Virus record (IMG/VR): IMGVR_UViG_3300028833_000053
Source of the DNA: a virus
Lineage: Duplodnaviria; Caudoviricetes
Strand: one strand, 5' to 3'
DNA length: 64,000 nt
In this document: positions 8,155 through 64,000 of the stretch, one piece after another
Layout: each line of letters begins with the position of its first letter
Position numbering within the stretch: the first letter of the stretch is position 1
The notes under the pieces: generated by a model
What the model was told of the DNA's origin: nothing
Databases searched by the model: none
The model's input: the letters and a program-made list of their open reading frames with translations, nothing else
Made by a program: the position numbers and the translations under genes

Positions 8155-11100
8155 ATGGCTCAACCAAGGACACAAGATAACCAAAAGGTATTTCAATCGG
8201 CGACATAGAACTTCAAGTCCTTTGTCGGTGCGGTTGACAATGTGTCGTCGTCAAAGAACATCAGTGAAATCTACGACAACATGACAAAGTTGTTTGACGT
8301 TTTCACCCAAGGTGCTTTGACGGGTCAGGGCGCAAACTCCGAGATTTTGCTGCGAACTGTCTACCGTTCCTTGTCGGATGACTTCCTGAAGATAATCCAG
8401 GACACGGACGCCGTTGAAAAGATAGTGGAACTCATAAAGAGCAAGCAGGAAAGCATAGACCCTGAGCAGGTTGACCAGGCTATGGTTTCCGAGACCACGA
8501 AGAAGGTTGTCACGAAGACGCTTGACCCATACGAGTGCGATCCAATGTCCGTGGTGTTGGATTTCGTTGACGAGCTTCAAACGGCAATTCTTCAAGTCAA
8601 GCTCAACCTCTCGCGTGAATACGAGAGGAAGAAGCTGGCTTATGCGAAATCCTATGAGGGACAACAGGAAGATCTTGACCGCCTCAATCAGGAATACACC
8701 GAGCAGGACGAGGCTATGGTGGAAGTCCTTGAACAGATGTCCGAGGACGAGGAGACTTGGAAAGAGGATTCGCTTGAGAAGTTGGAGAAGTTGCTTGAGA
8801 CGTTCAATGAGATTGGCAAGGGCAAGGATTCCAACTATGAGTTGTTGCAGGGTGTTGACAAAACCCTGTCCACCGACAAGCAGATTCAGCAATTCTTGAA
8901 GGAGAAGCCACCGAAGTTCTCTCCGAAGAAAACGCTTGATGCCATAAAGGGTGTTGGGCAGTTGAAGAGCAAGCCGGACGTCACAACCGTTGAGAGCAAG
9001 ACCCAAACCAAGACCGTTGTGAAGTCCACGCAAACGGAAATCAAGAACACGGTTGTGGTGAAGGAAAAGGCGAAGAAAGACGGAAAGAAAGTTCCATAGC
9101 CGAAGGTTCCTGAAAAACCAGTTGCGAAGGACGAGAAGAAAAAGGAAACGCCTGTAAAGGAAAAGACACCCGAAACGCCGACTCCGGTGAAGAAGGATGA
9201 GGCAAAGACGCAGACCCCACAGGTTCCGGAGAAAACTCCAGAACCCATTGGCAAGAAGGGTCCGCCACCAATCCAGCAGGAAAAGATAAAGGTTGCTCCG
9301 CCTCCACCATTGCCGGTAGTTCCACCTCAAATCGAGAAAGAAGAAAAGCCGAACGAGGATGAAAAGGCTAAAAAGCCCATTATGGAAAAACCCATAATGG
9401 AGAAGCCCATTATTCAAAAGCCGGTAATGGGAAAGCCGATAATAGAAAAGGCGGTTGACGAAAAACCCAAGGTTGAGAAACCAACTCTGGAAAAGGCAAC
9501 GAAGGAAAAGCCGACAATTGAGAAACCAAAGGTTGAACCAGTATAGGTATAGAAGCCAACCTTGGAGAAGCCAATGGTCGAGAAGCCGACGGTTGAAAAG
9601 CCCGTCGAGCAAAAGCCAATTGTTGAAAAGCCTGTAGTTGAAAAACCCAAAGAGGGAAAGACCACGGTTGAGAAGCCCAAGGTTGAAAAACCTAAAGTTG
9701 AGAAGCCAATTACAGAAAAACCCGTTGTTGCCAAGCCAATTGTTGAAAAGCCAAAGGTTGAGAAGCCGACATTTGAGAAGCCAAAGGACGAGAAGCCTGT
9801 AGTTGAGAAGCCCGTTCAACAAAAGCCGAAAGTCGAGAAGCCTCTTGTTGCGAAGCCGGTGGAGAAGAAGCCTTTGATAGGCAAGCCGTTGGTGAAGAAG
9901 CCCATTTTGGAAAAGCCGACGGAAGGGAAGCCCATTGTCCAAAAGCCATTGGTCAGGAAGCCTCTCATACAAAAGCCTGTTCTGTCAAAACCAGTTCTTG
10001 GAAAGCCGACAATGGGGAAGCCCATTTTCCAGAAGCCAATCACGCAAAAGCCCCTTCTTCAGAAGCCAATAGTTGAGAAGCCCATAAAGAAGAAGCCGTT
10101 GTTGGAAAAGCCGAAGGTTGAAAAGGCGAAGGTGGCGAAGCCGAAAATTGAAAAGGTCAAGTCAAAGGCCGCAAAAAAGGCTCCTGCCAAAATAGTCAAA
10201 AAGGCTGCAAATGCCGTTCCAAAGTCCCCAATGGGGAAAAAGACGCCCGACCCGAAATTGGCGCAAAAGAACTTTGCAAAGGAGTTGGACAAGACCTTGA
10301 ACGCCGGAAAAGTTCAAGAGCAGAAGTACACCAAGCAGTTGGATGTAATAGAGAAGTTTTTGGCAAAGGACGAGAAAGACGATAAGCAAAAGCACGCCGA
10401 GGATGCAAAGCAGCACAAAGAAGATGACATCATCTTCAAGAAGATGCAGGAGAAGGAAAAGAAGGTAAATGCTGCGAAGGACAAGGCCGAAAAAGAAAAG
10501 CGGGACGAGGAGAGGAAAAAGCAAGCCGCAAAGAAGAAGGAGGCGCCGAAGGCCGTCAAGGCGCAACCCAAACCCGCGTCGGCTCTTGGAAAGAAACCCG
10601 CTCCAGAGAAGCCAAAGGACACCAAGCTCAAGGTGAAGCCCAATGCGGGAATGTGTACGTGCCCGATATGCGGTTCGCAACACCTTCCTGGAATGCACTC
10701 ACATGGCGGGAAGAAAAAGGGTGCAATGCCAATGCCGATTCCCGTTCCAATGGGGAAGGGAAAGCAGGGCAAGTTGGCGCAACCCGCAATTCCATTGAAT
10801 CCACTTGGAGGTGACTAGTCCGAGGGTGGAATTCCACAGGACAAGATTGTGTCCACCCTTGGCACAATCCACGACAACTTGGGCAAGACGATGAACAACA
10901 AGAAGTTCAAGAACTCCTTCATGCTCAACTACAAGCCGATTCAAAAGGGCGTGAAGAAGCAACTTGACAAGGTTGGTTCGGACGAGAAAACCATCAGCCA
11001 GGACTTGGCGGAAACAGAGAAGGGCATCAAGAAGTTGAAGAACAAGAAGAAGGGCAGCTTCCTTTCGAGGTTGATGAACGGCGGCATAACCGGACTCATA

Positions 11101-14100
11101 TTCAAGGTCATAGGTGGATTGATTCTCATTGCCCTTGCAAGAATCGCGTTGAAGAAGTGGAAGGAGGCGTATATGCCTCCGACCGACGGCTCCACGATGA
11201 CCATATTCGGATTCCAGATTCCCGGATGGGACACCATAAAGGCAATTGGAATAGGCATATACAATTTCGTCACCGTGGGATTGATGAACCACTATGACAG
11301 ACTCAAGTTGTTCTTTGGAAACCTTCACAACCAACTTTTCGGCAAGAAGGGGGCAATACGAAGCATGGCGCAGGTTCGCCACATATTGCGCAGAATAGTT
11401 TGGGCGTGGATTATCGGACAGACGAAGAAGGCCGCGCGCGGCCTTTGCGACTGGCTGCTTGACATCTTGGCAGTCCCCTTGAACGCCTTGGCTCCTGGCG
11501 CGGGGCTTGTGTTGAAGTTCCTCATCAAGCTCCTCCCGGAAATATACTCGTTCATCACCACCCAGATAATGCTCTTGTGGAGCAAGAACAAGCGCGATGC
11601 GGAAGAGGCCGAAACCGCGGAAGCCGAAAGCATTGGAATGGCCGTCAATTCGGGAACAACCACGGCGATGAGCATGATAAGTTCCCAGCTCAAGGGTTTG
11701 TCCTCTGGGGTGAAGCCATTCAAGAACCAGGCGGCGAACCTACCCGGTCTTGAAACTCAAAAGGGTCCGAAAGGAAGGGGCCCGAAGAAGATGGCCATAA
11801 TGCGCCGCTTCCCAATCAAGTATTACAAGTCCTTTGACAAGGCGAAGAAGATGCAGAACAAGAAGTTTGAGTCTGACATGGAGGAGAACAAGCAGAAGGA
11901 CGAGAAGCGCATAAACGGCGGGGACGTTCTCATCAGCCAGATCGTCGAGGACACGTCAAAGATAAACCAGGCGGTTGACGAATTTACTGGAAGTATTGGA
12001 ACGTGGATCCATAGTTGGGACAATGAGAAAGTTGCGAAAATAAGGAAGTATGCCCCGAAAGAATATGAAGATGCAGACAATCGGGTGTTGGCAGATAAGT
12101 GGAAATGGGATAAAGAATTCAAATAGAAGGTAATTCATAATTACACGTCGTCGATTAGTCAGGAGATATACAAGAGAACCATAGTGGTGGAGCTGAACAA
12201 GGTTTCCGCGTACATGAACGCGCTTGGAAAGTCCTAGAGATTCAAGAACGTGAAAGGTCCGCTGTATGATCCAGTCAAAGGGTGGAATCCTGGATACAGG
12301 GTGTATGCCTCCGATTTGAAGACGGCGATTCCATTCAATCCGCTTGAAAAGATACACAGCAAGGCCGACATTCCAATTGGCGAGCCTGCGAAGGCCGAAG
12401 CCGATTCAATTGGTTGGATGCCCTTCAAGTGGATTTCCAATGGAGTTCCCGTGAACGTGCATCCTATAAACTGGGAATTGGCTAGGGCGAACGCCATATG
12501 GAACTTGTATAACTGGTTGATGAAGAACCGTTTTCAGAACAATTTGAACAATTGGAACACAACCAACATTGAAGATTTCAAGAAAGCCATTCTTCCAGAC
12601 GTGTTTGCCGACTGGAGAAGCTGGAACCAGCCTGTTGGTGATCACAGAAGCGAAGCCACATGGGGCAAGGCATATCCGCCAGAGACATATCAATATGGCG
12701 ATCAATTCGTACGGTTCATAAATGCTTTCCGCGCTGGCAAGATAGATCATGGGAACAACAATCTTGACACCGCGATGAAATTGAGAGACCCGACGTATCT
12801 TGAAAAAATGTTCGACAAGATGCACAAGAAGTTGGGCGACTATGGCACTGCGGCGGTTTCCGGCGCTGCCATAGGTGGTGCTGTCGGTGGTGCGGTTGGA
12901 GCCGTTGCTGGTGCGGCAATAGGTACCGCAGCGGTTGGTGTGTACAAGGGCGCAAAGTGGGTTGGACAGAAGATGGACGACTTGCAACGCGCTTTGTCCT
13001 ACGACCAAGATCCAGACGGAGAGGAGGAAGAATAGACGGAAGAAGTGGAGGAAGAGCAAAGCAGCGTTCCTCTCATAGGTTGGTTGATAAACGGCGTCAA
13101 GAAAGTTGTCAAGGTCATCAAGAAAATCGTCAAGAAGGTGAGCCGCAAGGTCGCAGCCCTCAACCGAATCAAGGAATGGCGCGGCAAGACCTATTTTGGG
13201 GTTAACTATGGTGACATCCGCGATTTCATGATTGACACTGGCGTTTTGCAGTTGTTCAGTCAGGGATAGATCATCAAGCCAGTCCAAAAGACGATTCCTC
13301 TTCTGGACAAGCTCATTGACATGAAGGTGATAGGGAAGGGGTCAAGCGTGGAGGATGGCAACTCGATGCATTCTCTCATGGAGGCTTTCTTCGCATACAA
13401 CCGCATTGAGGGATATGACTGGAAGAAAATGCAAAATGACGAGAGGGCGCAGGCTGCTTTCGCCCAGTCCCTTTTGGAATATCTCGCCTTGAAGGTCATT
13501 CCTCAGTGGAACATAGTTGAAAAGCTCCTTTCAAACGACGTTACGAAGAAAACCGACGAAACCAAAAAGGCGATGGATGAAGGTGTGCAGGTTCTTGCAA
13601 ACTTGCTTTCATTCAAGGGCATAATGGAACACCTTTCAAAGCATCTCCGATTCCCCAACATGAAGGTCAAGGTCATAGACTTCTCCAATGCAAGGGACGA
13701 TCACGACAGGGAGTTGCTTGAACAGTTCAGAAAAGACCAGGGAATTCCCAACAGCGATGAAAAGAACCAAATACTTGCACAGTGGCAAGGCGTTTGGTCG
13801 AAGATTCCAAGCATGAACGATGAGGAGCTTCAAGGCAGCTTGGATAACTTGAAGAAACTCATTGGGGTTGCGGCATTTGAAGCGAAGTACACCGGAGAGT
13901 TCACTTACGAGAAGCAGTTGCGCAAGTTCTACACCGCCATGATAAAGGAGAAGGACGAGCGTTTGAAAGCACAGGCCGCAGGTGACAAGATTGTTCAGAA
14001 GCCGGGTGGGATAGAGCGCGTCATGGAAGGTCCGCCGCCGAAGACCATGTTGGAAATGGAGGAAGAACGCAAGGCAAAGGAAGCCGAGGAAGCAAGAAAA

Positions 14101-14598
14101 GCGGCGGAAGAAGAAGAGAAGCGCAAAGCCGAAGAGGAAAAGAGGCTGCAAGAGGAGGCGAAACGCCAAGAGGAATTGAAAATTGCCCAGGCGAAGATTG
14201 CCGCCATGGAAGCCATCAAGAAGCAGGAGCAGAACTACGAGAACATCTTGGAGAAGATGGTGCAAGACCCATCAACGGTGACTGATGAGGAATTGAAGTC
14301 ACTTGGTGAAGACGTGAAGAACTTGAAGCAGGAAGCAGAAAACAGGATTGCACAACTGCCAAGAGAGGAAAGGGAAATGAAGCTGGCGTTGATTCGCGGC
14401 GACAAGCTTTCTGAAAAGACCTTCGCCGAGTTGAAGGAAACCGCAGTGGGGTTGAGTGGAAGTCTACAAGCCTACATCTAGGAAGTGAACCAAATTCCAG
14501 TTGGCTCTATAATGGCAATATAGGAAACGCCAGGAACGCCAACAGAAAGCAAGATATAGTTGCAAGACTCCGACAATGTGGATATGGGCGACGAATAA
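8155..14598 (+). CDS. Giant 2147-aa protein with KPxxE pentapeptide repeats, hydrophobic segments and coiled coils; 12 in-frame TAGs; possible tape-measure or ejection-type virion protein
   Basis: Seven listed ORFs (8242, 9187, 9562, 10849, 12250, 13045, 13321) lie in one frame. The only breaks are TAG at 8206, 9097, 9544, 9550, 10816, 12124, 12235, 13033, 13267, 14479, 14521 and 14557. ATG at 8155, TAA at 14596. Confidence 0.85.
9370..10160 (+). repeat. Degenerate 15-nt (5-aa) tandem repeat encoding KP-x-x-(E/Q/G/K)
   Basis: KPIME KPIME KPIIQ KPVMG KPIIE ... KPKVE KPTFE ... KPLIQ KPVLS, roughly 50 units. Confidence 0.9.
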
Positions 14599-14629
14599 AA
14601 AGACTTGGTTGGATAAGCCAAGTCTTTTT
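14598..14629 (+). terminator. Intrinsic terminator next to a TATAAT element upstream of the tRNA
   Basis: AAAAGACTTGG-loop-CCAAGTCTTTTT; TATAAT at 14632. Confidence 0.75.
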
Positions 14630-14654
14630 AGTATAATTGAATGTGACGATTTAA

Positions 14655-14685
14655 TGCCCTATAGTGTAACAGCAGCACAGGGCAA
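14655..14685 (+). pseudogene. tRNA remnant (acceptor stem plus D-arm only), tRNA-Gln-like
   Basis: TGCCCT-ATA-GTGT-AACAGCA-GCAC-AGGGCA-A; its D-stem GTGT/GCAC is identical to that of the adjacent tRNA. Confidence 0.45.
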
Positions 14686-14691
14686 ATTGAA

Positions 14692-14781
14692 TGAGCAGTG
14701 GTGTACGGCTTGCACAGACGGTCTCTAAAACCGTGGCTTCTGAAGCGAACGGACTGGGTTCGACTCCCAGCTGCTCAACCA
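14692..14781 (+). tRNA. Amber suppressor tRNA, anticodon CUA, probably Gln-accepting, with a long variable arm
   Basis: Acceptor TGAGCAG/CTGCTCA plus A-CCA; D-stem GTGT/GCAC; anticodon arm ACGGT-CTCTAAA-ACCGT (CTA at 14725-14727); T-arm CTGGG-TTCGACT-CCCAG. Confidence 0.9.
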
Positions 14782-14795
14782 ATTTGGAGACTGAC

Positions 14796-15083
14796 ATGGA
14801 AAAGAAAATTGACTTTGAGTTATTGACTGTAATTGACGAATCCATTGGTGATTCGGCAAGTTATGTTGATGCACTGGACAAGGTTATCAAGTGGGAGAAG
14901 GAGAATCGTGGATTGAAGGGATTCCATGTTTCCGCGCCTCTTGACGTGATGTGCGGAACAAGGAAAGTGGAAGACCCCGAAAAGGAAGCCGAGGAAATGG
15001 CGAGGGGTGTTCTGTTGATGCATCGCGCAGGGGCGTTGGGGAAATGGAAGGAAATCTCAGGTGACGAATTGGAGAGGATGTAA
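14796..15083 (+). CDS. Hypothetical protein
   Basis: GGAG RBS then ATG (MEKKIDF...) just after the tRNA. Confidence 0.6.
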   Translation: MEKKIDFELLTVIDESIGDSASYVDALDKVIKWEKENRGLKGFHVSAPLDVMCGTRKVEDPEKEAEEMARGVLLMHRAGALGKWKEISGDELERM

Positions 15084-15554: not shown

Positions 15555-16655
15555 ATGCATCGTTATACTCAAGAAGAATTATAGTCTATATTTTAGGACT
15601 AGAAATTGGGTGAGGAAATAATTCCTCATATTAAAAACAATAAGATAGATATTGTTTTGTGGAATCAACGATATAAGCAACAATGGAAATAGATTTAGAG
15701 ACAGATGAAGAAGGGTTTATTGTGTCCGGTTTGTGGCACAATACTATTTAAGTTTTATGAGAAACATTTAGCACAGCATAATCTTACTGTAAAATAGTTA
15801 TATGATTAGGTATATGGTATAACTGAATCACCCAAATGCCCTGTGTGTGGAGAAGCAACAGAGTTTGTTAAGAACAAATGGTTTTATCGTAAATTTTGTT
15901 GTAATGCTCATTAGTGCAGAATTATAAATGAGACTGACGGATTGAGGAACGGATGGACTATTGAAGATATTAGAAATCATAATTCCATGATAATAGAACG
16001 TGGAAGAAAAGTATGCGATATAGTCAATAAAAAATATGGAAGTCAGTTTTCAATAAAATTAACTGATGAATAGCGTCTTAATAGAGGGTTAATAAATGAT
16101 GATGACTATTAGGAGTGGCAGACATAGTAGAAGTTAAAAAAATCAGAAGCCGGAAAACTTGGAGGGAAAAAATATTCTTCGTTATATGGATATAAATTAT
16201 TGAAGACATGGGGTTACAAAACGAAAATATTTTTGACTGAAAATAAATGGTTCATGCTTGAATCTTAGTAGGAATTGTTTCATTTATTGAAACGTGTATT
16301 TATCGACGGAGATAAGATTGAAACTATGAGTAATGCAATATTTTTAGAGAATACGACTAATTTATTTTCTGGAACAAGTGCTTTTACGGATTTGGTTATA
16401 GATAATAATGGAATAAAAACAAATTATGAAGTTCATTGTATAGATGATGAAGACACTATAAAAAGAAAACGATATTGTTCTGAATTAAATGGATATGAAT
16501 TTGTATTGGAAGATATTACTTTATACACATATCCGAATGGAAAATACATTGACCAATTAAGATAGTTTATAAATGTAGATGAAATTTATGAAAAGTTGAA
16601 ATATGAAAATAAATGTGGTAATGTATTTGTATTGAACTTATATGATTATGTATAA
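15555..16655 (+). CDS. Putative free-standing homing endonuclease (zinc fingers plus PD-(D/E)xK-like C-terminus), 366 aa, 15 in-frame TAGs
   Basis: Read codon by codon, with no TAA/TGA from ATG 15555 to TAA 16653. CPVCG twice, YRKFCC, ES(Q)(Q)E...FTDLVI...YEVH. AT-rich; GTAAATA at 15500. Confidence 0.7.
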
Positions 16656-16664
16656 TTATTCAAT

Positions 16665-17243
16665 ATGAGAAGGGTTATCATAATACGTAAAGATTTACAC
16701 CTCAAAGCTGGTAAATTAGCTGCTATGTGTATGCACTGTGCAGAGGCATATTGGACTAACTTGATGAAGTCATCCGTTGTCATTGACAACGAGTTCATGA
16801 CTTTGCCCGCATGGGAGAACTATGGAAATGGAAAAGTGGGACCGGCCCTCTACAAGCACCCAGGACTTTACAAGTTGTCTGAAGAGGCTTACAACCGTGG
16901 GGAGAAGTCCTTCACCACAACGAGGGAAAACGCCCGTAAGTCCGTGACGGTCACGATGGAGATTCCAAAGGACATTTGGGAAGGGTATGTAAACGACATC
17001 TTCACAAAGACAATTTGCGAAGCACGCAACTTGAACAACTTGAAAACGAAGATTGAGCCGGTTGTGCAGGAACTTGGATTGGTTGAGGGGATTGATTGGG
17101 GCTACATCAACGATTGCTGCAAGACGGACTTGACGCCCGAGAACGAGGATGGCACTTGCACGATTGGTGCGTGGTTCAAGCCATTGCCTGACGAAGACGC
17201 ATTCAAGATTAGCAAGAAGTTCAAGCTTTACAGGGATGATTGA
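16665..17243 (+). CDS. pth2: Peptidyl-tRNA hydrolase, PTH2 family
   Basis: VIIIRKDL-LKAGKLAAMCMH N-terminal motif; FTKTIC; I-D...TDL...GTCTIGAWFKP; C-terminal KFKLY. Confidence 0.8.
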   Translation: MRRVIIIRKDLHLKAGKLAAMCMHCAEAYWTNLMKSSVVIDNEFMTLPAWENYGNGKVGPALYKHPGLYKLSEEAYNRGEKSFTTTRENARKSVTVTMEIPKDIWEGYVNDIFTKTICEARNLNNLKTKIEPVVQELGLVEGIDWGYINDCCKTDLTPENEDGTCTIGAWFKPLPDEDAFKISKKFKLYRDD

Positions 17244-38560: not shown

Positions 38561-39604
38561 ATGGAAGTTATAACTGGAAAATTGTGGTTTGAACCATGTT
38601 GTCCTAAATGTGGAAAGACAATTGATATTGAACGAGGAGAAAGCGGACTTTACGCCAGGTGCGGGAAATGCAACAACGAATGGTCTGCATCTTCATTTGG
38701 AGACTTACTTGACGAGCAGAAATGGCTTGAACAGTTCAACCCCGAAAAAACCGAACAAGAATAGACAGAAGAGCCTGAAGAGGGACACGAAGGTAAAAAG
38801 GTTATGGGTACGGTTACAATTCAGAATCACACTACGTTGAATCCAATCACGCTGATAGGCGAGGAGGCCGGCATTTGCTGGGGAGCAGATACAACAGACG
38901 AGGCGAAGAACTACAAGCGGGGAGTGGATTGCATCAAGTCGGACCATGGACGCGCAATGGAGTTTCCCCAGATTTACCTTGTCCTTGAAGGTTGGTCTGC
39001 GAAGGTCATCCGAGAGTTCTACACGCACATTGGCGGCGCCCCGACAAGACTTCAGGCAAGCACAAGGTACATTGACTACTCAAACGGATTCTATTCCGTC
39101 ACGCCACCTTCGGTTGAGAACAACCCGGATGCACTGGCGGCGTGGAACGAGTTCATGCAGACTGTCGCGCCGAAGATTGAGCAGTTGAAGAAACTGGGAA
39201 TCCCGAACGAGGATGCAACCAACGTCCTTCCACTTTCCTACATGACGAAGGTTGTTGTGCGCACGAATCTCCGCAATCTCATCGACATGTGCCACCAGCG
39301 TCTTTGCACAAGGGCGTATTGGGAATTCAGGCAGTTGATGAAGGAGATTCTTTGGCAGTTGGAGAACTATTCCGACGAATGGGAGGACTTGGTTCACGAC
39401 CTCAAGGTGTTCAAGCCCAAGTGCGAGTTGCTTGGCTACTGCCCCGAGAAAAGGGGTTGTGGGAAGAAGGGTAAACGTACCGAAGAGGGTAAATGTACAG
39501 ACGAGGTACAAAAGCCATTGGATTTCATTTGGAATGGAGAAACGCAAACAAAGGTAGTGTCAAGGGATGAACGCTACGATTAGAAGAAAGTGGACAAGGC
39601 GTGA
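38561..39604 (+). CDS. thyX: Flavin-dependent thymidylate synthase (core 38804-39583), with an in-frame upstream zinc ribbon joined via TAG and a short TAG read-through tail
   Basis: DHGRAMEF, REFYTH...RLQASTRYID, VLPL, TNLRNL, RLCTRAYWEFR; TAG at 38762 and 39581; TGA at 39602. Confidence 0.85.
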
Positions 39605-45998: not shown

Positions 45999-46357
45999 TG
46001 TGGTATAATATGACAAAGGAGAATTTGAACAGATGAGCAAGCCAACAAAGACACAGATTCATTTGACATTGGAAGCCAAGCAGGTAGTCAATCTTGCCGT
46101 TGGACATTCAGATGTTCACGATGTCGTATGGGTGAGGAATTACAAGAAGGGTAGAAACCCAATGCAATTTCCCAAGTTCGGACAATGGAAGACCTTTGAC
46201 GAAATAAAAAAGTCTCTGAAGCAGGAGATTGAGAAGAGGTTTCCGAAGGACGCATTTCCCTTCAAGCAGCCAGAAGGCAAAATCACATTGTATCGCCGAA
46301 ACGAGGAGGACAAGGAATATCTCTGGGACATGGGAGACTTTGACGTGGAGTGAAATT

Positions 46358-47003
46358 ATGGCCGAGAAGAGAAAGAAGCACAAGAAGGTGAAGGTCTACG
46401 AGTGCAAGCACTTCAAGTCAGACTCTGACGATTTCAGCAGGTGGATTCATTGCAGGAACCGCGACCTCCCCTGGAATCAGTGCATTTGCGAAAACGTCTA
46501 CGCCAGAAAACTTTGCCCTTGCTTCAAACGCGGTGCTCTTCTTGGCGAGTTCGACAGACTTCCTGAAATCAACACTGATGAGTGGAAGGAGAAATTTGCC
46601 AATGAGTTCAAGTCCGTGATAAAGGAACTTGAATGGGAAATTGAGGACAAGCAGGAAACTCTGGATATCTTGAAGAAAAGGATGGAGAAGTATGGCTGAC
46701 CTGGGAAACAAGGTTGACATTTACGAATGCGCCCATTTCGAGTACGAGTACGATGACTTTGGAAAGTATTGCTGGTGTCATTGCCCCGAAAGCGGACATA
46801 GGGAATGCCCCAGTGAGAAAATCTACGCAATGCAGTTCTGCCCCTGCTTCAAGAAGGGTGAACGCAGGGGCGCATGGGAACCTGACCCCTATGAACTGGA
46901 ATACGCGGAGAGGTTCAAGAAGAGGATGAACAGAGAATCCATTGAAAGGGAAATGAAGGAACGTGCCATGTTGCACTATCTGAAGGAGAAATACGAGCCA
47001 TGA
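46358..47003 (+). repeat. Two tandem paralogous Cys-rich genes (46358-46699, 46692-47003)
   Basis: VxxYECxHF...WxHC...YAxxxCPCFKxG in both. Confidence 0.7.
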
Positions 47004-48022
47004 GCAAATTGAAGTACAGAGACATGAGGACAAAGTGCGAATTATTCTACCTGGACAACCCCGAATTCGCGGAAGAGCCGTGGAAGCATCCCGACCCTTC
47101 CATTCATGTTGTCGAGGTGTTCAAGGTTCATTCGTTCAACGAGGCAATTGAGTACACGAAGAACTACAATCTTCAGCACTCCGACCACAGGTATTTCTGG
47201 AGACACAAGCATGAAAAGGGCGACTATGGCTTGTGGCACGAGGATGGCGTTTGCAGTTGGGGATTGTCCGACGTTGACAACTACTTCGTTGACAAGATAG
47301 CGAAGGAACGCATCAAGCTGCGGGAATTGGATAGCAGCAAGATGTTGTATGAAGATGAATACAACGCGAAGAAGGATGCCATTCTTGAAAGGGTTGGACG
47401 TATCCGCAGAAGGTCAAGGAACAAAGTCATACGTTTCTTCGTGAAGTCCGGCATGGCGATTTCCGACTGGTGCGGATGGTATTTGAAGGACAAGTGGATT
47501 GAGAAGCACAAGGACCGCAAGTGGAAGCGCGAACGTCTGGCGTATTGGAAGAAGAACAAGCATGACATCCAGGAGAGCTGGAATCTTGAACTGCATCTTC
47601 TTGGGGACTTGAAGTGGAACTTGAAGCGTCTGAATGAAGAGGGCTACGGCATAAACTCCGAGTTCATTCGGGACATCGTTATGGAAGACCACAAGGACGA
47701 ACCTGATTTTGACTACACCAAGTTCATGGAGAAGTTCTGGATGGGTGGTTCCGTTGGTGACGTTGAGGACCGTGCGATTCAACGTCAGAAAGAAACTTAC
47801 GAGCGCATTTGCCATTTGGTTGACCTCTACACTTTCTACTACAACTCCGAGGTTGATGGCGAGGAAGTGAACGAAAAGACACGCACCGATGATATGAGGG
47901 AAATCTACATCCCCGAGACCTATGACATGATTGACTACATGGCTATGTCCGAAAAGGGCAAGGAAGCCTGGAACGAGATTTGGGACTTGGTGAAGAGGTA
48001 CGGACAGCAGATGAACGATTAA
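47000..48022 (+). CDS. Hypothetical protein
   Basis: 340-aa coupled ORF. Confidence 0.7.
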   Translation: MSKLKYRDMRTKCELFYLDNPEFAEEPWKHPDPSIHVVEVFKVHSFNEAIEYTKNYNLQHSDHRYFWRHKHEKGDYGLWHEDGVCSWGLSDVDNYFVDKIAKERIKLRELDSSKMLYEDEYNAKKDAILERVGRIRRRSRNKVIRFFVKSGMAISDWCGWYLKDKWIEKHKDRKWKRERLAYWKKNKHDIQESWNLELHLLGDLKWNLKRLNEEGYGINSEFIRDIVMEDHKDEPDFDYTKFMEKFWMGGSVGDVEDRAIQRQKETYERICHLVDLYTFYYNSEVDGEEVNEKTRTDDMREIYIPETYDMIDYMAMSEKGKEAWNEIWDLVKRYGQQMND

Positions 48023-62803: not shown

Positions 62804-64000
62804 TTGAACTACGCAACAATTGGAGGTAGTTGCGATTCAGTTTGGTTCTTTATGAACAAACTGCTCTACCCGAAGTTCCTTCGGTGATAAAAATGTCCTT
62901 CAAGTTTTGTGCAGCGTTTTGGTCACGGTTGTGTTCCTTGCCGCACTTTGGACATAGCCATGTTCTATCTGATATAGTCAAGTCCCTATTGACATACCCA
63001 CAAACATTGCATGTCTTTGACGAGGCAAACCACTTGTCCGCCTCCATTACTATCTTCCCATGTTCTTCGGCCTTGGCTTTCAACCGTTGAACAAAGGTGT
63101 ACCAACCCAAGTCATAAACAGACTTGCCATGATTGGATTTATCTGGTGTGTTTTTTCTTTCGATCCATTTCTTGAACTTCGCCATGTCCTTCAATGATAG
63201 AGATTCAACAACTATGACATCATTTCCTTTCACCAATTCAGTTGAGGTTTTTTCTATGAAGTCTTTGCGCTTATTCTTGATATGTTCGTGAATACGAGCA
63301 ATTCTCATTCTGAGTTTTTCTTTCAATGACTTGTTTTTTACCGTAGATATTTTTCTCTAAAGTTCAGAAAGTTTCTTCTCATAGGCTCTATAATTTCTAT
63401 CGTATTGGGGTGAATTTCCTTCGTCATCTACGAAGAAGTTTGTTAAGGACATATCCAGACCCTTGACTTTTAAGTTTGGTTTATTGACATCCTTTTGAGT
63501 TTTAGTTGTAATAGCATCTTCGTACAAGATTGAGACATAATACTTCATAGATGGTGTTCTGGAAAAAGTCATGCTATGTATTTTTATGTTTTTAACAACA
63601 CGATTATCTCTGAAAGTTATCCAACCCAGTTTTGGTGCTTTGACTTTCCTTTTATCAAAATCTATTTTCAAGTTATTGTGGTTGCAAACAGTACGATATG
63701 AATTCTTAGCAAACTTTTTCTTGAATTTTGGAAATCCTTTTTCTGAGATTGGTACTTTGGGGTCTTTACATTTTCTCCAAAAATTTTCATATGCTACTCC
63801 AAGATTCATTCGCGTTTGTTGAAGTGCAACAGAATCCACTTCTTTCAAGAATATGTTTTCTTCCTTTAGTTGTTTTTCAGTTTTGTACTTATATTCGTAA
63901 AGTTCTCTCGGGGTGTTCTTTAGTTTTACATATACATCTTTTCTTTCTGAAAGCATAGTGTTGTATAAAAATCTGCAACATCCGAATGTTTTGTCCAATA
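62804..64000 (-). mobile_element. IS200/IS605-family element, right part; left end outside the window
   Basis: tnpB followed on the minus strand by hairpin CGCAAC...GTTGCG and TAGTTCAA, like an IS605 right end. Confidence 0.7.
62850..63998 (-). CDS. tnpB: TnpB RNA-guided endonuclease, 5' truncated by the window; one in-frame TAG at 63357-63359
   Basis: FGCCRFLYN, GFPKFKK, RuvC GLDM / VVESL / RDQNAA, zinc finger SKTCNVCG...CPKCG; the two ORFs are in one frame. Confidence 0.9.

Follow-up and report, generated by a model that had tools for sequence, protein, structure and literature searches.

Recoding of TAG to glutamine and of TGA to tryptophan is established in phages, while the charging of the suppressor tRNAs by anticodon-dependent host enzymes is an open question. 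In code 15 phages (crAss-like phages, Lak phages and others), the accessible parts of the reports describe a tRNA(CUA) together with in-frame TAG codons read as glutamine and no phage synthetase, with charging presumably by the host (Borges preprint, 10.1101/2021.08.26.457843; PMC9523058; PMC10879173). Those parts of the preprint call the charging of the suppressors unexplained, and those of the theta-ribozyme paper predict isotypes and leave variable arms unmentioned (PMC10879173). In Escherichia coli, the CUA forms of tRNA-Gln (supE) and tRNA-Trp (su7) insert glutamine, with glutaminyl-tRNA synthetase (GlnRS) reading U35 and a weak 1:72 pair (PMC9976931). In engineered pseudo-anticodon tRNAs, a variable-arm hairpin imitates the cognate anticodon arm on an amber suppressor; a GUG pseudo-anticodon arm raised aminoacylation and specificity, as histidylation, in E. 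coli reporters with a HisRS carrying an extra anticodon-binding domain (Mukai 2020, PMC7590224). Here we describe an amber suppressor tRNA(CUA) gene of 90 nt, with encoded CCA, at 14692..14781 (+) of a 64,000-nucleotide stretch of Caudoviricetes DNA (IMG/VR record IMGVR_UViG_3300028833_000053), the whole of which is called the window. The gene has a counterpart for each of these features: in-frame TAG codons aligned with glutamine, no recognised phage synthetase, and a variable-arm hairpin that resembles the tRNA-Gln anticodon loop.

The original prediction, made from the letters alone, described a full cloverleaf with a CUA anticodon, encoded CCA, U1:A72, G2:C71 and discriminator A, and all of these were recovered by direct reading, ARAGORN and minimum-free-energy folding; direct reading also agreed on a 19-nt variable region with a hairpin and on 2 nt between the D and anticodon stems. 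The acceptor stem (TGAGCAG/CTGCTCA, giving U1:A72, G2:C71 and A3:U70) is followed by T8 and G9, the D arm (GTGT-ACGGCTT-GCAC), two linker bases (AG) and the anticodon arm (ACGGT-CTCTAAA-ACCGT), whose loop CUCUAAA at 14723..14729 (+) places CUA at 14725-14727. The variable region (G-GCTT-CTG-AAGC-GAACGGA, 14735..14753, +) consists of a hairpin at 14736-14746, drawn as GC-UUCUGAA-GC or as GCUU-CUG-AAGC, and a conserved 7-nt tail, GAACGGA. The T arm (CTGGG-TTCGACT-CCCAG), A73 and the encoded CCA complete the molecule.

Canonical elongator features were present throughout: a 7-bp acceptor stem, a D arm with GG, a 5-bp anticodon stem with a 7-nt Y-U-NNN-R-N loop, a 5-bp T stem and a TTCRA loop. The minimum-free-energy fold was a five-armed cloverleaf. 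An alternative centroid fold, in which the 3′ strand of the anticodon stem pairs with the tail GAACGGA, was rejected because the tail is unchanged when the anticodon stem changes across the family described below. ARAGORN called one tRNA in the whole window, at 14692-14781 (+) with anticodon CTA; the anticodon was thereby confirmed, and the isotype call was uninformative, as the label 'Pyl' follows from the anticodon alone. The gene matched no Rfam family at gathering score (membership of clan CL00001). Its best sub-threshold match was tRNA-Sec (RF01852, 33.6 bits against a threshold of 47), the score being lowered by the extra arm and the linker base.

The source phage genome, designated G000, is a single contig of 433,895 bp; a 127-bp overlap between its ends shows it to be circular or terminally redundant. 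The GC content is ~47%. Genes for a T4-type TerL, gp23 capsid protein, tail sheaths, a gp55-like sigma factor, DNA polymerase B and NrdD identify it as a jumbo myovirus-like phage. Two sister phages with complete genomes (414 and 418 kb), designated G001 and G002, are present in IMG/VR, their TerL being 83-86% identical; GenBank phages gave no match in a megablast with 20 kb of the window.

TAG behaves as a sense codon in this genome. Reading through it joins six same-frame pieces into an open reading frame (ORF) of 2147 codons with 12 in-frame TAGs (8155..14598, +), a putative client of the suppressor that adjoins the tRNA on its upstream side. Genome-wide, a codon-usage gene caller returned 428 genes, 115 of which hold 284 in-frame TAGs. 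Counted per site, a single TAG merged long open segments 5-10 times as often as a TGA or TAA did. Reading TGA as sense also lengthens ORFs; TGA recoding was nonetheless rejected, and TGA was treated as a stop, because TGA is 3.6 times commoner than TAG and its merges per site are 5-10 times lower. The first and last tenths of the gene models showed a slight excess of TAGs, so some TAGs probably lie outside true coding regions or act as leaky ends. In the ThyX gene (window 38561-39604, +), the code-11 frame ends at a TAG (39583) and the next stop lies 7 codons on; TAG may be a leaky end for some genes, ThyX among them.

All gene products, with TAG translated as X, were compared with G001 and G002 by tblastn, using ungapped, locally conserved columns only, and candidate residues at TAG were scored with a substitution table from the same sister-phage alignments. 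TAG stood opposite glutamine at 31/69 and 32/73 informative sites in the two sisters. The glutamine codons at these sites were CAG (25 and 23) and CAA (6 and 9); as CAA is two mutations from TAG, the match does not reflect mere mutational neighbourhood. TAG met TAG at 12 and 6 sites, and in-frame stops of the sisters lay mainly opposite glutamine of the source phage (28 and 29). The log-likelihood at TAG was -154 for glutamine, with the next best residues at -242 (E) or -220 (K).

The original prediction had named leucine, tyrosine and serine as the residues that would speak against a glutamine suppressor. Serine scored -259 (G002) and -277 (G001), more than 100 units below glutamine, and leucine, tyrosine and tryptophan fell outside the six best-ranked residues for either sister. 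By direct count, TAG stood opposite serine once and tyrosine once in G001, opposite serine four times in G002, and never opposite tryptophan. A TAG in the gp55-like gene falls at the glutamine of T4 gp55 in 'nphayitQacf' (PDB 7d7c_F). The TAG at TerL position 110 lies opposite a variable serine of T4 gp17 and was uninformative, and a Pfam search of 30 TAG-bearing proteins found few conserved domains. Taken together, these alignments show that TAG corresponds to glutamine in this phage. The window gene, the sole tRNA(CUA) among 36 phage tRNAs, is very probably the amber suppressor that inserts it, which agrees with the Gln-type suppressor, and with the Gln-like acceptor features, of the original prediction.

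IMG/VR was searched with a pattern constrained only in the anticodon loop, the T loop and the spacing; with two later additions, a 20-sequence alignment was obtained. The long-arm tRNA(CUA) genes on IMG/VR contigs comprise at least 20 distinct sequences, which have 8 different acceptor stems. The 1:72 pair was U:A, A:U, G.U, U.U or C:G and the discriminator G, A or U, one subfamily combining C1:G72 with U73. When the flanks of the loci were compared with the source phage, only two weak high-scoring segment pairs were found (35-53% identity, 2/21 loci). Most family-bearing contigs had long ORFs with many in-frame TAGs, and at TAG in contigs other than the source phage glutamine was again the best residue (log-likelihood -123 versus -143 for K, N = 46).

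In the alignment, 94.4% of cells paired, and 17/26 pairs showed compensatory changes. None of 500 shuffles scored as high, and slid controls reached 33-47%. The anticodon loop was invariant in 20/20 members. In the variable arm, the outer pair 50:60 covaried (GC 14, UA 4, CG 1, UG 1), the next pair was always C:G, and the hairpin was followed by a conserved tail of 6-7 nt. The seven arm-loop positions read [C/U]-U-[C/U]-U-G-A-[A/G], with U, G and A invariant. This consensus is that of the tRNA-Gln anticodon loop: the loop of the phage's own tRNA-Gln(CUG) is CUCUGAA, and the arm loop here is UUCUGAA. The arm-loop equivalent of positions 32:38 was C.A in 11/20 members, the usual non-Watson-Crick combination of real anticodon loops. 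The arm triplet was CUG in every aligned member but L061; that sequence and the later-found L650 have UUG, the other glutamine anticodon.

To place these counts in context, the long-armed tRNAs of every viral locus retrieved, 364 distinct sequences, were compared. The motif U[CU]UGA occurred in the variable region of 19/21 CUA tRNAs versus 3/343 other long-arm tRNAs. Comparative analysis thus shows the long arm to carry a conserved copy of the tRNA-Gln anticodon loop, in a phage tRNA(CUA) family whose distribution indicates horizontal spread. In a scan of bacterial genomes, the matches listed included only Sec-like and class-II-like tRNA(CUA) genes, without U[CU]UGA and without a clue to the host. 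Loci L379, L392, L394 and others, from Modestobacter, Geodermatophilus and Blastococcus (Geodermatophilaceae), hold 96-nt Sec-like tRNA(CUA) genes, used here as negative controls and free of a Gln mimic, which match a published case of Sec encoded by UAG.

A like pattern for the UCA anticodon found 23 long-armed tRNA(UCA) genes on IMG/VR contigs. Thirteen of them (L262, L278, L288, L300, L310, L316, L317, L319, L323, L334, L339, L358 and L359) have an arm stem of 4-7 bp, different in each, closed by a 7-9-nt loop, x-U-CCA-A-A, which is that of the tRNA-Trp anticodon loop. These thirteen loci are low in GC, and reading TGA as sense raises their ORF coverage. Of the ten other genes, at least five were Sec-type by eye (G1, GCCA end), and UCCAA was found in 0/10. 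Across all long-armed tRNAs, UCCAA occurred in the arm of 13/23 UCA tRNAs versus 4/341 others, with no crossover of the Gln and Trp motifs between the CUA and UCA groups. Neither motif was found in Sec-type UCA tRNAs, bacterial Sec-like CUA tRNAs or ordinary class-II tRNAs, and of three long-armed UAA suppressors, tRNA(UUA), none had a mimic.

E. coli GlnRS reads U35 and G36 as well as the acceptor end, at a cost of up to 1e5-fold when these are lost, and U1:A72 also marks tRNA-Gln for GluRS2 and amidotransferases (PMC9976931). Compared with the E. coli identity set, tRNA(CUA) has U1:A72, G2:C71, G10:C25, U35 and A37, and deviates at A3:U70 (not G3:C70), A73 (not G73) and A36 (not G36). An equivalent of G36 was found solely in the variable-arm loop. 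The phage's own tRNA-Gln(CUG) likewise has A73, and shares with the suppressor U1:A72, G2:C71, the loop C-U-CUN-A-A and the T loop TTCGACT. A recent copy of a resident tRNA, tRNA-Gln included, was rejected as the origin of the suppressor, which is 70-75% identical to many residents alike; judged by these identities, it is not derived from the phage's own tRNA-Gln.

The whole phage genome contained no match to PF00749 (GlnRS/GluRS), PF00472 (RF1/RF2), PF02934 (GatB), PF00587 (class II aminoacyl-tRNA synthetase core) or PF00579 (Trp/TyrRS), the control genomes being positive in each case. The phage is thus unlikely to encode a dedicated synthetase from any known family, and charging is therefore by a host enzyme or by something unrecognisable. 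The idea that this hybrid body might need a phage synthetase was accordingly not upheld, and the check suggested with the original prediction, for a GlnRS/GluRS or RF2 gene in the rest of the genome, found neither by PF00749 or PF00472.

Long variable arms are not confined to the suppressor. Thirty-four of the 36 phage tRNA genes lie in one cluster, with tRNA(CUA) alone ~87 kb away. In the cluster (G000:C1:310623-323588), the tRNAs for Thr(CGU), Thr(UGU), Arg(UCU) and Asn(GUU), which measure 88-91 nt, bear long variable arms with a paired stem, and four of four Leu tRNAs are short-armed. Arm length is thus no predictor of amino-acid class, and the view of the long arm as a mark of a Ser/Leu/Tyr-type hybrid could not be sustained, TAG moreover aligning to glutamine. 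In sister G002, the tRNAs that are long-armed in the source phage are mostly of normal length. No anticodon mimic was found in the other long-armed tRNAs of the phage (Thr, Arg, Asn). ARAGORN called no Tyr or Gly tRNA in the cluster. A 97-nt tRNA-like gene at G000:C1:316584-316680 has an 8-bp acceptor, a 6-nt anticodon loop and a long variable arm, and its anticodon was unassignable by ARAGORN.

These data suggest a mechanism. Host RNA polymerase would transcribe tRNA(CUA) from a sigma-70-type promoter, and a host enzyme would load it with glutamine, so that UAG would be read as glutamine. Suppression would let ~115 TAG-containing genes be translated, including those for the gp55-like sigma factor, the large terminase, a tail sheath and giant virion proteins. 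On becoming a suppressor, a CUA tRNA keeps U35 and loses G36, and a UCA tRNA loses C34 of tRNA-Trp. The variable arm would then serve as a pseudo-anticodon, giving the Gln-charging enzyme the determinants lost from the real anticodon, G36 above all. The free variation of the acceptor stem and discriminator in the family would fit an identity carried elsewhere in the molecule. The linker base after the D stem and the 6-7-nt tail could, as a speculation, let the two hairpins swap at the junction. Taken as a whole, an explanation that combines a Gln suppressor, host charging, a horizontally spread family and the arm as pseudo-anticodon is the best available, and we place slightly more than even confidence in it. 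That the arm is indeed read by a synthetase appears possible at just under even chances. A wider proposal, that stop-suppressor tRNAs evolved, at the site of the variable arm, a second, non-decoding anticodon arm (CUG/UUG for UAG-to-Gln, CCA for UGA-to-Trp) read by host GlnRS or TrpRS instead of the mutated anticodon, is put forward tentatively, as somewhat more doubtful than probable.

Several points weigh against the pseudo-anticodon explanation. The variable region points away from GlnRS in the class I complexes known, so for the arm to reach the anticodon pocket a hairpin swap or a different mode of enzyme binding would be needed. The Gln-type arm is short, with 2-3 firm pairs and a 7-nt loop. 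Arms without a mimic occur on Thr, Arg and Asn tRNAs of the same phage, and some arm insertions in this phage clearly have another cause. The motif counts and their Fisher P values (3e-24 for the Gln motif and 1e-14 for the Trp motif, with two sequences from a motif-containing pattern removed) overstate independence because the family members are homologous. The charging enzyme would be either GlnRS or GluRS with an amidotransferase, depending on the host. Finally, G001 and G002 manage TAG as glutamine with a short-arm tRNA(CUA) at the same locus, so the arm is not essential for glutamine identity.

That last observation also favours a simpler account, in which an ordinary Gln amber suppressor is recognised through U35, the weak 1:72 pair and G2:C71, as in supE and su7, and the arm is a scar or neutral insertion, e.g. 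a duplicated anticodon arm, with no role in charging. Among the Thr, Arg and Asn tRNAs of the clade, long arms appear and disappear, and amber suppressors are readily glutaminylated in E. coli, as stated in PMC9976931 and in the accessible part of the Borges preprint. A scar should decay, yet the U-YUG-A loop is kept over 8 acceptor-stem lineages on an arm stem that covaries, and the sole triplet variant is UUG, a synonymous glutamine anticodon. Independent opal suppressors, moreover, keep the tryptophan anticodon CCA in the same place. We therefore regard a scar as unlikely, although it deserves more weight than the other alternatives. One of these is that the arm serves another partner: as a handle or decoy for a host tRNA nuclease or defence, for an enzyme modifying the tRNA-Gln loop, or for a phage protein. 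It broadens the evasion of host anticodon nucleases that the original prediction had raised as a possibility. A copy of an anticodon loop would attract any enzyme that reads that loop, and the many phage tRNAs with unusual arms, together with Leu tRNAs that lack theirs, would fit pressure from tRNA-targeting defences. We know of no nuclease specific for tRNA-Gln or tRNA-Trp anticodons, however, and the family-bearing contigs have no linked gene in common with the phage. Whether for Gln or for Trp, the mimic corresponds to the amino acid needed by the reassignment, which points to charging, and another partner seems improbable. The remaining alternative is that the tRNA is class-II-like or of the Sec/allo type and carries Ser, Leu or Tyr (or Sec or Pyl), with TAG encoding that residue. 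It would account for the long variable region, A73 suits Leu or Tyr, and both the Rfam match to tRNA-Sec and the ARAGORN label point the same way. It is contradicted by the sister alignments, in which Ser, Leu and Tyr rank far below glutamine or outside the top six; by the 7/5 acceptor/T arrangement and 4-bp D stem, where Sec has 8/5 or 9/4; by a variable region of 19 nt rather than the 3 nt of Pyl; by the sub-threshold Rfam score; and by the lack of a class II synthetase core in the phage. We consider it very improbable.

The locus itself suggests a history of replacement. A sigma-70-like promoter (TGGATA-16 nt-TATAAT, 10/12 matches) lies at 14610..14637 (+), sharing part of its length with the terminator hairpin of the giant gene upstream. 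In all three phages the promoter core, GTATAATTGAA, follows the giant gene and is itself followed by a tRNA(CUA). The three tRNA(CUA) bodies behind it are unlike, the long-armed form being found only in the source phage. That of G002 (G002:C1:268611-268687) is a short-loop form of 74 nt that has G73 and a mismatched A1.A72. That of G001 (G001:C1 ~297905-297985, minus strand; tile L132) has the non-canonical T loop GUGGCAAA and was missed by ARAGORN. Between promoter and tRNA in the source phage, reading of the leader identified a putative tRNA remnant at 14656..14686 (+), a TGCCC...GGGCA mini-helix around a GTGT...GCAC D arm, which is similar to the 5′ half of the tRNA(CUA) resident in G001. 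We infer that this mini-helix is the scar of a G001-type tRNA replaced by the long-armed form, and that an older tRNA(CUA) was thus exchanged at a conserved promoter-tRNA-pth2 locus.

Downstream, a 95-aa ORF with no assigned function (14796..15083, +) starts 15 nt after the tRNA and is probably co-transcribed with it; a stretch homologous to this region lies downstream of the tRNA in G002. A 366-codon ORF with 15 in-frame TAGs (15555..16655, +) stands between the tRNA and pth2. TAG makes up 4% of its codons, its GC content is ~37%, it encodes Cys-x2-Cys pairs and it matched no family; it looks like an inserted mobile gene fully dependent on the suppressor. The TAG-free gene that follows (16665..17243, +) encodes a PTH2-type peptidyl-tRNA hydrolase (PF01981, 41.1 bits, cut-off 23). 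In G001, the translated start of the ORF directly after the tRNA terminator is PTH2-like, as judged by eye only, and tRNA(CUA) and pth2 may be a conserved pair in the clade. Elsewhere in the window (62850-63998, -), a TnpB/Cas12f-like ORF (OrfB_IS605 and TNB domains) needs one TAG read-through.

The TATAAT element before the tRNA had been taken to allow early synthesis. The sigma-70-like site fits this view, as does the gp55-like late sigma gene (G000:C1:174288-174932), which itself has three in-frame TAGs, so that the suppressor would be needed before late transcription. TAG-containing genes include TerL (G000:C1:151526-153517, three in-frame TAGs), one sheath paralogue and giant proteins, and TAG-free genes include those for DNA polymerase, NrdD, a helicase, a gyrase-like protein, a chaperonin and the gp23-type major capsid protein (46134-47741). 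TAG use is not simply 'late', because the gp23 capsid gene is TAG-free, though TerL and the gp55-like sigma gene carry TAGs. The motif GTATAAT was rejected as the mark of an 'early' gene class, being only weakly tied to TAG-free downstream genes (79% versus 73%).

In the literature searched, the engineered tRNAs of PMC7590224 were the only case of a pseudo-anticodon or anticodon-like arm, with no natural one found; many subscription journals lay outside the search, and a prior description is possible. If the pseudo-anticodon explanation is true, the family would represent a new natural identity device, in which the anticodon seen by the synthetase is separated from the one read by the ribosome. 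It would be a natural and general solution to the charging problem of codon reassignment, would explain why glutamine and tryptophan are the reassignments seen, and would offer genetic-code engineers a ready-made route to efficient suppressors. Long-armed tRNAs below the Rfam threshold and suppressors missed by ARAGORN, such as that of G001, may partly explain why suppressors are found in only ~40% of recoded phages.

Among known systems, the accessible parts of the code 15 phage papers describe no long or anticodon-like variable arm, unlike the tRNA here. The present locus also differs from those cases in having no theta ribozyme, with CCA encoded and the next ORF 15 nt downstream, and in its setting, a 434-kb T4-like jumbo phage of ~47% GC. 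The supE and su7 tRNAs have variable loops of 4-5 nt and G73, compared with a 19-nt arm, A73 and an extra base at position 26 here, and the present suppressor shows no close similarity to the tRNA-Gln or tRNA-Trp of its phage. A five-armed cloverleaf with a paired variable arm is shared with class II tRNAs, tRNA-Sec and allo-tRNAs (PMC5389517). In class II arms, however, the loop varies and the stem is followed on its 3′ side by 0-4 unpaired bases, where the present arm has a conserved loop and a 6-7-nt tail, and Sec and allo-tRNAs have acceptor/T arrangements of 8/5, 9/4, 8/4 or 9/3 with a 6-bp D stem, compared with 7/5 and 4 bp here. tRNA-Pyl has a 3-nt variable loop, a 6-bp anticodon stem and a small D loop, in contrast to the 19-nt variable region and 5-bp anticodon stem of this gene. 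The engineered pseudo-anticodon design, with its like variable-arm hairpin, is synthetic, built on an allo-tRNA chassis and used with a fused HisRS; the tRNA described here has no known fused enzyme, is natural, and carries the mimic for glutamine, with tryptophan as its counterpart in other phages.

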